NCBI RefSeq assembly: GCF_003334385.1
Contig: NZ_QOWN01000016.1
Origin: Escherichia coli
Lineage (GTDB): Bacteria; Pseudomonadota; Gammaproteobacteria; Enterobacterales; Enterobacteriaceae
Length of the DNA: 64,000 nucleotides
Direction: 5' to 3' (one strand)
Part shown: positions 23,825-40,462 of the stretch, in pieces
Numbering within the stretch: the first letter of the stretch is position 1
Layout: every line of letters starts with the position of its first letter
Notes under the pieces: model-generated
Seen by the model: only the letters and a program-made list of their open reading frames with translations
Told to the model about the DNA's origin: nothing
Database searches by the model: none
Position numbers and translations under genes: made by a program

Positions 23825-24541
23825 TCACAAGTAGACTACGCTTATCACAGCTTTCCCATCAAGTTCGATTTTTTCTGAACCGCCTAAATCATTCGCGATA
23901 GATGCGCTCACCTGAAGCGGTATAATGGCGTTCGTTACAGGAGTTGGGGTTGTTTCACCTGGTTTTACAAAGGTGTAATAATAGCTTTGATCGACTGCAA
24001 GCGGATAAGCGGTGAGCGTTTGCCATGCTCTTTTTTGCCCTGTTATGACGGCATCTGCACCTGCTATTGATACAGCTAACGTCTGGCTACCATTGCTGGC
24101 ACTAATGTTGTTGCTATCAATTAACACGGCATAACTACCGATATTTTTATTATCTTTTGTTTTCCCTAAGCCGAATAAGCGCGTTGTCTGGCTAATATAA
24201 CCTCCGCCATTTAAGGTATATTTTACACCACTCTGACCCCCACTATCTTTTCCGGTGGTCATACTATCCATTCGTGTATCACGAGCGGTAATCGCAATGC
24301 TGGTAGCGGATTCGCAAGTTATAGTCATATTAATATTACGTGTTCCAATCTGTGTGTAGTGCTGCGTTGAAAGTCTATTGACTGAATGACTACCGAAGTT
24401 AACAACTCCGCCGTTGCTTAGTATTGGAGTACAAGCTGCAGCTTCCAGAGTCACCTTAACGTCAATTGATACTCTATCAGCGGCTTGCGCTGACATGGCA
24501 AAAAAGGCACTTCCGGCAATCAGTAATTTTACATTGTTCAT
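23825..24541 (-). CDS. yhcF: Secreted fimbrial-like protein YhcF (DUF1120 type)
   Basis: 238 aa with signal peptide MNNVKLLIAGSAFFAMSAQA; paralogous pattern to GltF (GxCTP...ITC); last gene of the chaperone-usher operon. Confidence 0.8.
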   Translation of the reverse strand: MNNVKLLIAGSAFFAMSAQAADRVSIDVKVTLEAAACTPILSNGGVVNFGSHSVNRLSTQHYTQIGTRNINMTITCESATSIAITARDTRMDSMTTGKDSGGQSGVKYTLNGGGYISQTTRLFGLGKTKDNKNIGSYAVLIDSNNISASNGSQTLAVSIAGADAVITGQKRAWQTLTAYPLAVDQSYYYTFVKPGETTPTPVTNAIIPLQVSASIANDLGGSEKIELDGKAVISVVYL

Positions 24542-25089
24542 TTTGCCTCCACCAGGACCGTCAGATTGCCTGTAATATCTGTCATGTCGGTTAGTTCCCC
24601 TTCATCCTTAAAAGCTGGAGCCATTGTCAGTGTGAGGCTAACGCTTTTACCGCTATCAATTACCACTTCTTGACCATTTTGCATAAACACCAGCCAATTA
24701 TTGGGGGAAGTACTAATTGATGCTGTTCCTGTGCTGCCCGGATTGTCATTTTTGCCACTGGCTAACGCCAGGTCGAGATTGTTACTACCTGAAAATGCAT
24801 CGCTGGCGATCAGATTTAATGAACCATTCGGGCCAAATCCAAATCCGTTGTTGGAAATATTAGCGGTATTCAACTGAACACGAATATGAGCGTCCTGATC
24901 GCATTGCATTACCAGCGTGATTGTTCTGTCTGCTAATTGTGTTGTTTTACCCCGGTCAACTTGGCGCATGGCAGCACTTCGTTTGCCATAGTCGATATTT
25001 TGTATGCTACTGGAGATATTACACTCTGCCTGAGCGGCCATGGCGAAGTTCAGCAGCAGGCATCCTGTTATTATCCGTTTCATTGGCAC
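24538..25089 (-). CDS. yhcE: Secreted fimbrial-like protein YhcE (DUF1120 type), apparently intact
   Basis: 183 aa with a signal peptide; start overlaps the yhcD stop by 10 nt. Confidence 0.75.
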   Translation of the reverse strand: MPMKRIITGCLLLNFAMAAQAECNISSSIQNIDYGKRSAAMRQVDRGKTTQLADRTITLVMQCDQDAHIRVQLNTANISNNGFGFGPNGSLNLIASDAFSGSNNLDLALASGKNDNPGSTGTASISTSPNNWLVFMQNGQEVVIDSGKSVSLTLTMAPAFKDEGELTDMTDITGNLTVLVEAK

Positions 25090-37242: not shown

Positions 37243-39579
37243 ATGAAGCAAATTCGTCTGCTGGCGCAGTATTATGTTGACCTGATGATGAAGTTAGGTC
37301 TGGTGCGCTTCTCAATGTTGCTGGCGCTGGCCCTCGTCGTTCTTGCCATTGTGGTACAAATGGCGGTAACCATGGTGCTGCATGGTCAGGTCGAAAGCAT
37401 TGATGTTATTCGTTCTATCTTCTTTGGTTTGCTGATTACGCCGTGGGCGGTCTACTTTCTATCGGTGGTCGTCGAGCAACTGGAGGAGTCACGACAACGT
37501 CTGTCACGGCTGGTGCAAAAACTGGAGGAGATGCGCGAGCGCGATTTGAGCCTCAACGTTCAGTTAAAAGATAATATTGCCCAGCTAAATCAGGAAATTG
37601 CCGTTCGTGAAAAAGCGGAAGCAGAACTGCAGGAAACCTTCGGCCAACTGAAAATTGAAATCAAAGAGCGCGAAGAGACACAAATTCAGCTCGAGCAGCA
37701 ATCCTCATTCTTACGTTCCTTCCTTGATGCTTCACCCGACCTGGTTTTTTATCGTAACGAAGATAAAGAGTTTTCCGGCTGTAACCGCGCGATGGAGCTG
37801 CTGACCGGAAAAAGCGAAAAACAACTGGTTCACCTGAAACCTGCTGATGTTTACTCACCGGAAGCCGCCGCAAAAGTCATTGAAACCGATGAAAAAGTGT
37901 TCCGTCATAATGTGTCACTGACCTATGAACAGTGGCTGGATTACCCGGACGGGCGCAAAGCCTGCTTTGAAATCCGTAAAGTGCCGTACTACGACCGCGT
38001 GGGTAAACGTCACGGTTTGATGGGCTTTGGTCGCGACATTACCGAGCGTAAGCGGTATCAGGATGCGCTTGAACGGGCCAGCCGCGACAAAACGACGTTT
38101 ATCTCCACCATCAGTCACGAATTGCGTACACCGCTGAACGGTATCGTCGGTCTGAGCCGCATTCTGCTGGATACCGAACTCACCGCCGAGCAGGAAAAAT
38201 ATCTCAAGACCATCCATGTTTCGGCCGTCACGCTGGGGAATATCTTTAACGATATTATCGACATGGATAAGATGGAACGGCGCAAGGTCCAGCTTGATAA
38301 TCAACCGGTTGATTTCACCAGCTTCCTTGCCGATCTGGAAAATCTCTCCGCATTGCAGGCGCAACAAAAAGGATTGCGCTTTAACCTGGAGCCGACGCTG
38401 CCATTACCGCATCAGGTCATTACCGACGGGACGCGTTTACGGCAGATCCTGTGGAACCTCATCAGTAACGCCGTCAAATTCACCCAGCAAGGCCAGGTTA
38501 CCGTGCGCGTGCGCTACGATGAAGGCGATATGCTGCATTTTGAAGTGGAAGACTCTGGTATCGGCATTCCGCAGGATGAGCTGGATAAAATTTTCGCCAT
38601 GTATTACCAGGTGAAAGACAGTCATGGCGGTAAACCTGCCACCGGCACCGGTATTGGTCTGGCCGTTTCTCGTCGTCTGGCGAAAAATATGGGCGGCGAT
38701 ATTACGGTTACCAGCGAACAGGGCAAAGGTTCAACCTTTACGTTGACGATCCACGCACCGTCGGTAGCAGAAGAGGTCGATGATGCGTTTGATGAAGACG
38801 ATATGCCTTTACCGGCGCTGAATGTGCTGCTGGTGGAAGACATTGAACTGAACGTGATTGTTGCGCGTTCTGTGCTGGAAAAATTAGGTAACAGCGTTGA
38901 TGTCGCCATGACCGGCAAGGCGGCGCTGGAGATGTTTAAACCGGGCGAATACGACCTGGTGTTGCTGGATATTCAGTTGCCAGATATGACCGGGCTGGAT
39001 ATCTCTCGTGAACTGACGAAACGTTATCCGCGCGAGGATTTACCGCCGCTGGTGGCCTTAACCGCTAACGTGCTGAAAGACAAACAAGAGTACCTCAATG
39101 CTGGAATGGATGATGTGCTGAGTAAGCCGCTTTCTGTTCCGGCGCTAACCGCGATGATCAAGAAATTCTGGGATACCCAGGATGATGAGGAGAGTACGGT
39201 GACGACAGAAGAGAACAGTAAATCAGAAGCATTGCTCGATATTCCCATGCTGGAACAGTATCTCGAACTTGTAGGACCGAAGCTGATCACCGACGGGTTA
39301 GCGGTGTTTGAGAAGATGATGCCGGGCTATGTCAGCGTGCTGGAGTCGAATCTGACGGCGCAGGATAAAAAAGGCATTGTTGAGGAAGGACATAAAATTA
39401 AAGGTGCGGCGGGGTCAGTGGGGTTACGCCATCTGCAACAGCTGGGTCAGCAAATTCAGTCTCCTGACCTTCCGGCCTGGGAAGATAACGTCGGTGAATG
39501 GATTGAAGAGATGAAAGAAGAGTGGCGTCACGACGTAGAAGTGCTGAAAGCGTGGGTGGCAAAAGCCACTAAAAAATGA
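37243..39579 (+). CDS. arcB: Aerobic respiration control sensor kinase ArcB
   Basis: 778 aa with transmembrane, PAS, HisKA/ATPase, receiver and HPt regions; recognised as ArcB. Confidence 0.96.
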   Translation: MKQIRLLAQYYVDLMMKLGLVRFSMLLALALVVLAIVVQMAVTMVLHGQVESIDVIRSIFFGLLITPWAVYFLSVVVEQLEESRQRLSRLVQKLEEMRERDLSLNVQLKDNIAQLNQEIAVREKAEAELQETFGQLKIEIKEREETQIQLEQQSSFLRSFLDASPDLVFYRNEDKEFSGCNRAMELLTGKSEKQLVHLKPADVYSPEAAAKVIETDEKVFRHNVSLTYEQWLDYPDGRKACFEIRKVPYYDRVGKRHGLMGFGRDITERKRYQDALERASRDKTTFISTISHELRTPLNGIVGLSRILLDTELTAEQEKYLKTIHVSAVTLGNIFNDIIDMDKMERRKVQLDNQPVDFTSFLADLENLSALQAQQKGLRFNLEPTLPLPHQVITDGTRLRQILWNLISNAVKFTQQGQVTVRVRYDEGDMLHFEVEDSGIGIPQDELDKIFAMYYQVKDSHGGKPATGTGIGLAVSRRLAKNMGGDITVTSEQGKGSTFTLTIHAPSVAEEVDDAFDEDDMPLPALNVLLVEDIELNVIVARSVLEKLGNSVDVAMTGKAALEMFKPGEYDLVLLDIQLPDMTGLDISRELTKRYPREDLPPLVALTANVLKDKQEYLNAGMDDVLSKPLSVPALTAMIKKFWDTQDDEESTVTTEENSKSEALLDIPMLEQYLELVGPKLITDGLAVFEKMMPGYVSVLESNLTAQDKKGIVEEGHKIKGAAGSVGLRHLQQLGQQIQSPDLPAWEDNVGEWIEEMKEEWRHDVEVLKAWVAKATKK

Positions 39580-39692
39580 CCCCGGCTAGACCGGGGTGCG
39601 CGAATACTGCGCCAACACCAGGGAAATCTTGGCTGCGCCGTAAATTATTATGATGAGTTACAAGGGCACAGCACTGTTTTTCAGGCCGCACG
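39571..39692 (-). ncRNA. arcZ: ArcZ small regulatory RNA (Hfq-dependent), convergent with arcB
   Basis: The minus-strand sequence reads GTGCGGCCTGAAAAACAGTGCTGTGCCC...CACCCCGGTCTAGCCGGGGTCATTTTTT, matching my recollection of ArcZ including its terminator hairpin and U-tract; the U-tract is complementary to the arcB stop region. Confidence 0.85.
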
Positions 39693-39808
39693 CAGTTAAG
39701 ATAGCAAAACTTAAATGATTTGTTACATGAATCAGTTAAATGTGTGATGCGTACCATTTTTATTAAAAAAATTAATGTGTTTCAGTCAATTGCGAAAGGA
39801 TGATCACA

Positions 39809-40462
39809 ATGAAGAAAATTGGCGTAATTCTGAGCGGATGCGGCGTCTATGACGGTTCTGAAATTCATGAAGCGGTGTTGACGTTGTTAGCTATTTCACG
39901 CAGCGGTGCGCAGGCGGTCTGCTTTGCACCGGATAAGCAGCAGGTTGATGTTATCAACCATTTAACTGGCGAAGCGATGACGGAAACGCGCAATGTGCTG
40001 ATTGAAGCGGCACGAATAACGCGCGGTGAAATCCGTCCTCTGGCCCAGGCCGATGCCGCTGAACTGGATGCGTTGATTGTGCCGGGGGGGTTTGGCGCGG
40101 CGAAGAATTTAAGCAATTTTGCCAGTCTTGGTAGCGAATGCACCGTTGACCGTGAATTAAAGGCGCTGGCACAAGCGATGCATCAGGCCGGAAAACCGCT
40201 TGGTTTTATGTGTATTGCCCCGGCGATGCTGCCGAAAATTTTCGATTTCCCGCTGCGTTTGACCATCGGTACTGATATCGATACCGCAGAAGTGCTGGAA
40301 GAGATGGGCGCGGAGCATGTGCCGTGTCCTGTCGATGATATCGTGGTTGATGAAGACAATAAGATTGTCACCACCCCAGCATATATGCTGGCGCAGAACA
40401 TTGCAGAAGCGGCGAGCGGCATTGATAAGCTGGTTTCCCGCGTGCTGGTTCTGGCTGAATGA
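39809..40462 (+). CDS. elbB: DJ-1/PfpI-family glyoxalase-like protein ElbB (YhbL)
   Basis: 217 aa from [21 protein letters not shown]; recognised as ElbB. Confidence 0.9.

Follow-up and report, generated by a model that had tools for sequence, protein, structure and literature searches.

In the Escherichia coli DNA analysed here, the small RNA gene arcZ is encoded opposite the 3′ end of arcB, and the two convergent genes share 9 bp in such a way that the arcB stop codon falls where the stem of the ArcZ terminator gives way to the U-tail. Taken as a whole, the locus is best explained as arcZ, overlapping arcB with the stop in this stem/tail junction and engaged in cross-talk with it, most likely by RNA pairing, an account that we hold with high confidence. 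All positions refer to the window, the whole stretch of 64,000 nucleotides that was analysed.

Identification of arcZ

The interval is arcZ, an Hfq-dependent small RNA of Enterobacterales. The Rfam ArcZ model RF00081 matched 39584-39691 of the minus strand with 120.8 bits (E = 4.1e-27; gathering score 66), and the alignment spanned the whole model (positions 1-106 of 106). Comparison with annotated ArcZ, proposed as a check with the original prediction, showed complete (100%) identity of 39480-39800 with E. coli K-12 MG1655, in which arcZ (b4450, 3350577-3350697) is annotated as an ncRNA of 121 nt. The model match and this annotation bear out the prediction that ArcZ is encoded antisense to the arcB 3′ end, and its description as a known locus agrees with the annotation and with published literature; the predicted 5′ end at 39692 was 1 nt too far, the transcription start being 39691 (the G of GUGCGG). 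According to the open reading frame list, NCBIfam and the MG1655 annotation, arcZ lies between arcB and elbB (from about 39800), both of which are on the plus strand, and the same layout is described in a review (PMC11331407). The identity of arcB is secure: its product matched the NCBIfam equivalog NF008302 with 1483.1 bits against a cut-off of 838, residues 1-778 falling on profile positions 1-779.

The minus strand also holds an open reading frame of 62 aa (39569-39757) that begins with ATG, and the RNA might be read as its mRNA. However, this ATG is placed 66 nt upstream of where arcZ is annotated to start, conservation between genera is poor in the 5′ half, which contains indels, the frame has no NCBIfam match and the structural RNA model RF00081 matches the region in full. 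The frame was accordingly rejected as a gene, and we give the protein-coding reading practically no credence.

Table 1. Features of the arcZ/arcB locus (positions in the window).
Feature	Position	Strand	Basis
arcB CDS, 778 aa; stop TGA 39577-39579; last codons AAA AAA 39571-39576	37243-39579	+	ORF list, NCBIfam, MG1655
arcZ (SraH/RyhA, b4450), 121-nt primary transcript	39571-39691	-	RF00081 and identity with MG1655
arcZ/arcB overlap, 9 bp: ArcZ 3′ UCAUUUUUU opposite arcB AAA AAA TGA	39571-39579	both	sequence and MG1655 annotation
ArcZ U6 tail: terminator T-run, presumed Hfq-binding 3′ end	39571-39576	-	sequence; T-run invariant in 30-genus alignment
ArcZ intrinsic terminator stem-loop (ACCCCGGU-CUA-GCCGGGGU)	39579-39597	-	scan, MFE fold, covariation
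Processed ArcZ 3′ fragment, 56 nt; predicted RNase E cut GA|UUU between 39627 and 39626	39571-39626	-	counted from review motif
Conserved seed/processing determinant CCCUGGUGUUGGCGCA	39608-39623	-	exact match to motif quoted in PMC11331407; invariant
ArcZ 5′ stem-loop (GCUGUGCC / GGCGCAGC), lost on processing	39632-39672	-	Rfam consensus structure and fold
Probable arcZ promoter: -35 GTAACA 39726-39721, 17-bp spacer, -10 TATCTT 39703-39698	39698-39726	-	manual reading from annotated start

The ArcZ terminator and the overlap with arcB

A terminator scan of 39300-39900 returned one site, on the minus strand, compared with an average of 0.4 sites in shuffled sequence. Its stem has 8 pairs, 6 of them G-C, and is followed by CATTTTTTAG; the hairpin appears also in the MFE fold. 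U-tails of sRNAs act in Hfq binding, and the stem followed by U6 has the form of a rho-independent terminator with U-tail, as would suit the 3′ end of an Hfq-dependent sRNA.

The overlap measures 9 bp both in the window and in MG1655, in which arcB (b3210, 3350689-3353025) and arcZ share 3350689-3350697; the sRNA and the kinase gene are thus convergent and physically overlapping, as predicted. The six U residues of the ArcZ tail face the two final Lys codons of ArcB, the CA spacer faces the T and G of the arcB stop codon, and the closing U of the terminator (39579) faces its third base. This U is the sole stem base opposite arcB codons, and the remaining stem and loop (39580-39597) face the arcB 3′ UTR. 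The genes therefore share 9 bp because the U-tail is the complement of the Lys-Lys codons and the stop occupies the stem/tail junction; with the stop in this position, the Lys-Lys end of ArcB is written by the sRNA U-tail. The original prediction had set both hairpin and U-tract against the last codons and stop of arcB, which is correct for the U-tail, whereas the hairpin lies opposite the 3′ UTR save for its closing U. The overlap has already been described (Argaman 2001; Mandin and Gottesman 2010; review PMC11331407), the review giving its extent as ‘ten bases’ where the MG1655 annotation and the window give 9.

Predicted processing, seed and candidate promoter of ArcZ

For the expression, processing and Hfq binding of ArcZ we draw on the literature and on motifs in the sequence. 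ArcZ RNAs of ~121 nt and ~56 nt that depend on Hfq and RNase E have been described, together with the RNase E motif RN|WUU (PMC11331407). In the window, CCCUGGUGUUGGCGCA is preceded by GA|UUU, which fits this motif and is the predicted site of cleavage. The never-varying columns of the 30-genus alignment begin at 39625, and the seed is invariant in it, with positions 39608-39618 falling within the 24-mer that was used to collect the loci.

The candidate arcZ promoter agrees with the consensus at only 8 of 12 positions, and a sigma-70 promoter scan of 39300-39900 returned no site, omitting the candidate because an 8/12 match is below its threshold. Inactivation of arcZ by a -10 mutation, chosen to spare the overlapping arcB, has been reported (PMC3937726), as have binding and repression of the arcZ promoter by ArcA-P (PMC11331407). 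A search of 39692-39800 with the ArcA 15-mer consensus, allowing up to 3 mismatches, gave no match, such a simple consensus search being a weak test.

Conservation of the stop codon in the stem/U-tail junction

To assess the breadth of this arrangement, Enterobacterales loci were collected by an exact 24-mer, a criterion that leaves out lineages whose ArcZ has diverged (Dickeya, Pectobacterium); in both of these genera ArcZ and arcB do not overlap, according to review PMC11331407. The hairpin followed by GGG-TYA-TTTTTT was present in 119 of the 122 fetched loci by pattern count, and in all 30 aligned genera the stem led into T(C/T)A and then 6 or more T. Across these genera 99.6% of the cells of the ArcZ stem were paired, with compensatory changes at 3 pairs. 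Placement of the arcB stop was assessed by eye in the 30-genus alignment and from open reading frame lists for 12 loci; the stop was the junction triplet in 28 of the 30 alignment rows and in 10 of the 12 listed loci (Photorhabdus, Pantoea, Rahnella, Yersinia, Salmonella, Proteus, Providencia, Xenorhabdus, Rouxiella and Klebsiella). Overall, the stop (TGA or TAA) was exactly the triplet between the ArcZ stem and the U-tail in 36 of 41 loci. Judged from these sequences, the geometry is retained in Enterobacteriaceae, Erwiniaceae, Yersiniaceae and Morganellaceae and lost in few lineages.

The five exceptions are two Morganella loci, Pluralibacter, Mixta and Chimaeribacter. In Morganella and Pluralibacter the arcB stop has moved inside the T-run, and in Mixta and Chimaeribacter it lies 6 and 80 nt past the T-run, respectively, with the UCA and U-run of ArcZ kept, which implies that the coding overlap is not indispensable. 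ArcB of these exceptions does not end in Lys-Lys (the Morganella protein, for instance, ends in ...LADRR), and the Lys-Lys end therefore looks dispensable for the kinase. Shifted stops, persistence of the ArcZ stem and tail where arcB ends elsewhere, and a dispensable Lys-Lys would all suit the view that the overlap is a by-product of packing, the terminator being constrained by the needs of ArcZ and arcB running into the A-run and stopping, with no regulatory role for the overlap, so that any cross-talk would proceed through the ArcA-P loop or pairing elsewhere. This view is possible but doubtful, given the retention of the geometry in most loci of four families and the reports that ArcZ acts directly on arcB mRNA by pairing at the junction of 3′ UTR and coding sequence (PMC11331407, PMC4281340). 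It is also conceivable, if quite improbable, that placement of the stop in the junction has itself been selected as a coupling device, Lys-Lys being a passenger of the Hfq-binding tail of the sRNA. If this were true, a ribosome at the arcB stop would sit precisely over the part of the mRNA with which the ArcZ tail and stem pair, and translation of arcB would control whether ArcZ directs the decay of arcB mRNA, or arcB that of ArcZ. Lineages without the stop in the junction could serve as natural controls for the importance of the overlap.

Termination on the arcB strand

No canonical arcB terminator is present, as the terminator scan found no plus-strand intrinsic terminator in 39300-39900. 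Downstream of the stem the plus strand continues as TGCGCGAA and not as a T-run, and its fold gives a hairpin followed by UGCGCG. Because this hairpin is not followed by a T-run, arcB is probably transcribed antisense into arcZ; its transcripts may extend through much of arcZ, and the ArcZ/arcB interface probably exceeds the 9 bp of coding overlap.

Were the hairpin instead a bidirectional terminator ending both ArcZ and the arcB mRNA, the transcripts would overlap by only about 20-27 nt. The stem is indeed nearly palindromic and forms on the plus strand too, where an A-run precedes it; however, with the T-run on the minus strand only and no plus-strand site in the scan, a shared terminator was rejected and appears very unlikely. 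The alignment also argues against it, since 8 G-U cells of other genera would become A·C mismatches if read on the arcB strand and only 1 cell shows the reverse. A weak arcB terminator in E. coli, formed by the antisense of the ArcZ 5′ stem-loop with GTTTTTC after it (about 39632-39681), was likewise considered and set aside: the matching A-run of ArcZ is not conserved in other genera, and folding of the plus strand gave nothing out of the ordinary (z = -1.4), which counts against it.

Reported cross-talk between ArcZ and arcB

Mutual repression, of arcB by ArcZ and of ArcZ by arcB expression, is stated in review PMC11331407 (citing Mandin and Gottesman 2010), where arcB mRNA is also suggested to destabilise ArcZ in the manner of an antisense RNA. 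In the other direction, ArcZ is reported to destabilise arcB mRNA (PMC3937726), with decay induced when it pairs with the 3′ UTR and the last 6 coding nt (PMC4281340). We infer the mode of this repression from the literature and from the geometry described above. In the proposed scheme, arcZ would be transcribed from the minus strand, starting at 39691 and ending at the intrinsic terminator at 39571, convergent with arcB, and RNase E would cut at GA|UUU to free the conserved 56-nt 3′ fragment, which, according to the literature, would pair with rpoS, flhDC and other mRNAs. ArcB would phosphorylate ArcA and ArcA-P would repress arcZ, while ArcZ would lower arcB mRNA and arcB expression would lower ArcZ, both loops being drawn partly from published work and partly by inference. 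RNA-RNA pairing is the mechanism thought most likely for this cross-talk: arcB read-through RNA and the functional 3′ part of ArcZ would form a perfect duplex, leaving both RNAs open to decay.

The original prediction had proposed mutual transcriptional interference. This agrees in outline with the mutual repression stated in PMC11331407, but the mechanisms suggested in the sources act at the RNA level (PMC11331407, PMC4281340, PMC3937726) rather than by polymerase collision. Repression mainly by interference, with converging RNA polymerases colliding or dislodging each other in the interval from the arcZ promoter to the 3′ end of arcB, would be in keeping with the convergent orientation of the genes, with the wording of the review, which speaks of repression of ‘transcription’, and with the finding that no intrinsic terminator on the plus strand separates the arcB stop from the arcZ promoter, owing to which arcB polymerases could reach that promoter. 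Given the RNA-level mechanisms, and a literature search that found no link of ArcZ/arcB to transcriptional interference, we consider such collision improbable as the main cause and retain RNA pairing as the preferred mechanism.

Significance and comparison with known systems

The locus, the overlap and the mutual repression are already known, and the arrangement is real and conserved across enterobacteria. Its recovery from raw sequence indicates that the first reading was sound and adds no new biology, while the comparative survey is a modest refinement that establishes the breadth of the stop-in-junction geometry. In enterobacteria ArcZ connects oxygen sensing (ArcB/ArcA) with motility and virulence traits as well as with the general stress response (RpoS), and the arcZ/arcB overlap underlies the published feedback loop.

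Bidirectional intrinsic terminators of convergent gene pairs resemble this locus in having, between the genes, a G+C-rich and nearly palindromic hairpin flanked on one side by an A-run, but differ in that the ArcZ hairpin has a T-run on one side only, which by sequence makes it a one-way terminator serving ArcZ; a literature search returned nothing relevant linking ArcZ to terminators of this kind. In GadY/gadX and McaS/abgR the sRNA gene likewise faces the 3′ end or 3′ UTR of the mRNA next to it, a class that has been discussed together with ArcZ/arcB (PMC4281340). In that account GadY stabilises gadX mRNA and abgR is unaffected by McaS, in contrast to the reported lowering of arcB mRNA by ArcZ; unlike this class, ArcZ is above all a trans-acting, Hfq-dependent RNA with many targets (PMC11331407). 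With annotated ArcZ (RF00081, b4450) itself, all features tested match, including the sequence, the full model, the position and the convergence with arcB; the 3′ seed, the RNase E motif and the terminator tail overlapping the arcB stop are all in the window, and nothing of substance differs.

Identity and coordinates of the arcZ locus

The Rfam model of the sRNA ArcZ (RF00081) matched the minus strand at 39691-39584, spanning 106 of 106 model positions between arcB and elbB, the next plus-strand gene after arcB (120.8 bits; gathering score 66; E = 4.1e-27), and the NCBIfam ArcB equivalog matched the whole length of the arcB reading frame (1483 bits versus a cut-off of 838). Positions 39480-39800 were identical to K-12 MG1655, whose annotation places arcZ (b4450) at 3350577-3350697 and arcB (b3210) at 3350689-3353025, a 9-bp overlap; comparison with annotated ArcZ therefore bore out the identity assigned in the original prediction, and of its interval, 39571-39692, all but the 5' end held, this being off by one base. 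Of 5426 complete E. coli genomes, 5417 had a match to a 501-nt query around the arcZ site (39400-39900), and in 5264 of these the identity was at least 99%.

Only two Rfam families reached the gathering score in the 64-kb window, ArcZ and the greA leader, a known element found full-length upstream of greA (RF01769; 61336-61457, plus strand; 127.5 bits). Locus L002 (NZ_CP025842.1, 1672-1702) showed no difference from the window across the 501-nt query; its record annotates arcB and elbB with no arcZ feature, which the MG1655 record has, and reliance on that annotation would miss the sRNA. An intact yhcE (183-aa ORF, 24538-25089, minus strand), split by IS5 in MG1655 and here without the IS5 end repeat in the gene and its surroundings, identifies the window as E. 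coli but not K-12; left of this point, MG1655 coordinates are offset by ~1.2 kb relative to the window. For elbB (plus strand), the longest ORF opens at ATG 39800 and encodes 220 aa; the MG1655 gene, annotated as 654 nt and 217 aa, would begin at 39809 here, and residue 4 of the 220-aa ORF is the first that the NCBIfam profile covers.

Coordinates of features in the window and of variant loci among relatives
Feature	Position	Strand	Basis or remark
arcB ORF, 778 aa	37243-39579	+	ORF list and NCBIfam ArcB equivalog
arcZ, 121 nt	39691->39571	-	transferred from MG1655 annotation
arcZ/arcB overlap, 9 bp	39571-39579	both	MG1655 annotation transferred
ArcZ U6	39576-39571	-	complement of arcB's two last Lys codons
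ArcZ CA and stem-closing U	39578-39577 and 39579	-	complement of arcB TGA stop
Remaining ArcZ stem and loop	39580-39597	-	opposite arcB 3' untranslated region
Putative arcZ promoter	-35 GTAACA 39726-39721; -10 TATCTT 39703-39698	-	inferred
Morganella, two species	L014 202-211; L088 5125-5134		arcB stop overlaps only last two T of run
Pluralibacter MAG	L036 4830-4840		arcB stop is TAA inside T5 run (T-run only five)
Mixta sp.	L040 2470-2510		arcB stop 6 nt past ArcZ T-run, genes without overlap
Chimaeribacter arupi	L115 5115-5226		arcB end 80 nt past ArcZ T-run, genes without overlap

The arcB stop codon lies in the ArcZ terminator

The minus strand through the arcZ 3' end reads ...GCGCACCCCGGUCUAGCCGGGGUCAUUUUUU, and a terminator scan of 39300-39900 returned a single site, on this strand, with a stem at 39597-39579 (8 pairs, 6 G-C) followed by CATTTTTTAG; the minimum-free-energy fold of the 121-nt ArcZ ends in the same hairpin. 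Read from the sequence, arcB closes with ...GCC ACT AAA AAA TGA, and its stop codon occupies 39577-39579. The terminator does overlap the arcB stop codon, as had been proposed, through the closing stem U and the adjoining CA; the further claim of complementarity between the hairpin and the last arcB codons failed, only one stem base falling within the reading frame. With these two small corrections, the original observation was confirmed and its interpretation supported.

On the plus strand the hairpin can form too, with UGCGCGAA, not a U-run, after it, and the terminator scan found no plus-strand terminator in 39300-39900. For these two reasons the hairpin is, by sequence, a predicted one-way terminator, and arcB transcripts probably continue antisense into arcZ, possibly towards elbB. 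If such read-through occurs, the RNA-RNA interface would extend far past 9 nt and take in the functional 3' portion of ArcZ.

Conservation and selection among Enterobacterales

Loci were collected by exact match to an ArcZ core 24-mer using one genome per species, which yielded at least 120 Enterobacterales loci; this sampling makes columns 39595-39618 invariant by construction and leaves lineages with diverged ArcZ out of the sample. Thirty genera (Enterobacteriaceae, Erwiniaceae, Yersiniaceae and Morganellaceae) were aligned, one row each, with the arcB frame read back from a conserved Trp codon. Among the matches listed, the pattern 'GCGCACCCC, 7-12 nt, GGG-TYA-TTTTTT' occurred in 119 of 122 loci, T[C/T]A and at least six T directly followed the stem in 30 of 30 aligned genera, and in 28 of 30 rows the TYA triplet coincided with the arcB stop, TGA or TAA. 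ORF calls placed the arcB stop where predicted in 10 of the 12 loci so checked (Photorhabdus, Pantoea, Rahnella, Yersinia, Salmonella, Proteus, Providencia, Xenorhabdus, Rouxiella and Klebsiella), and 36 of 41 loci assessed shared the E. coli geometry, again among the matches listed.

In the 8-pair stem, standard pairs made up 99.6% of cells over the 30 rows, and three pairs had changed on both sides from G-C to A-U; the covariation score was reached by none of 500 shuffles, and a one-column shift of the 3' partners lowered pairing to 57-61%. G-U pairs in the ArcZ sense (A.C mismatches in the arcB sense) filled 8 cells and the converse only 1. On this modest but consistent evidence, it is the terminator of the sRNA, rather than arcB, for which the stem is maintained.

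Mixta and Chimaeribacter retained stem-UCA-U7/8 in ArcZ despite arcB ending beyond the T-run, and are natural controls for the importance of the overlap. ArcB ends in ...LADRR in Morganella psychrotolerans. The terminal KK of ArcB is missing in lineages without overlap, which suggests that the constraint on these residues comes from ArcZ, not from the kinase. The U-tail of Hfq-dependent sRNAs is their Hfq-binding 3' end; if this holds here, the C-terminal Lys-Lys of ArcB would be written by the Hfq tail of an sRNA. In Enterobacter sp. EA-1 (L112 6753-6790), ArcZ has the seed variant CCCCGCAGUGUUGG in place of CCCUGGUGUUGG, as well as a T-run of T5-C, and is otherwise conserved.

Processing and transcriptional control of arcZ

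E. coli ArcZ occurs as 121-nt and processed 56-nt forms, with an RNase E site, RN|WUU, just upstream of CCCUGGUGUUGGCGCA (PMC11331407). The motif mapped to GA|UUU, cut between 39627 and 39626 on the minus strand, giving a putative 56-nt product at 39626-39571; the never-varying columns of the 30-genus alignment begin at 39625. The putative promoter matches 8 of 12 consensus positions and hence falls below the promoter-scan threshold; a published arcZ inactivation used a -10 mutation chosen to spare the overlapping arcB (PMC3937726). arcZ is repressed by ArcA-P (PMC11331407). A simple consensus search for the ArcA-box 15-mer (three mismatches or fewer) gave no match between arcZ and elbB (39692-39800) and three in the window (6935, 8404 and 24810), no more than expected by chance. 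A 62-aa ATG ORF over arcZ (39569-39757, minus strand) has its start codon 66 nt ahead of the site where arcZ transcription begins; no NCBIfam profile matched this ORF, and it is almost certainly not a genuine gene.

Cross-talk between ArcZ and arcB

Identity, coordinates, terminator, overlap geometry and its conservation, stem covariation and the lack of a canonical arcB terminator were computed here; ArcZ expression, Hfq dependence, RNase E processing, ArcA-P repression and mutual ArcZ/arcB repression are taken from the literature. Repression of arcB by ArcZ is attributed to Mandin and Gottesman (2010), as cited in PMC11331407, and ArcZ binding to the 3' UTR plus six coding nucleotides before the stop induces arcB mRNA degradation (PMC4281340); that arcB mRNA destabilises ArcZ as an antisense RNA is speculation in the review (PMC11331407). 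Read-through from arcB would supply such an antisense partner, and RNA pairing rather than polymerase collision is probably the main mode of cross-talk.

The arcZ/arcB pair is a textbook locus and, as the original prediction stated, already known. MG1655 annotates the overlap, and the review has arcZ lying downstream of arcB in the opposite orientation and describes the two genes as non-overlapping in Pectobacterium carotovorum (PMC11331407). The comparison across genera refines that account neatly without amounting to a discovery.
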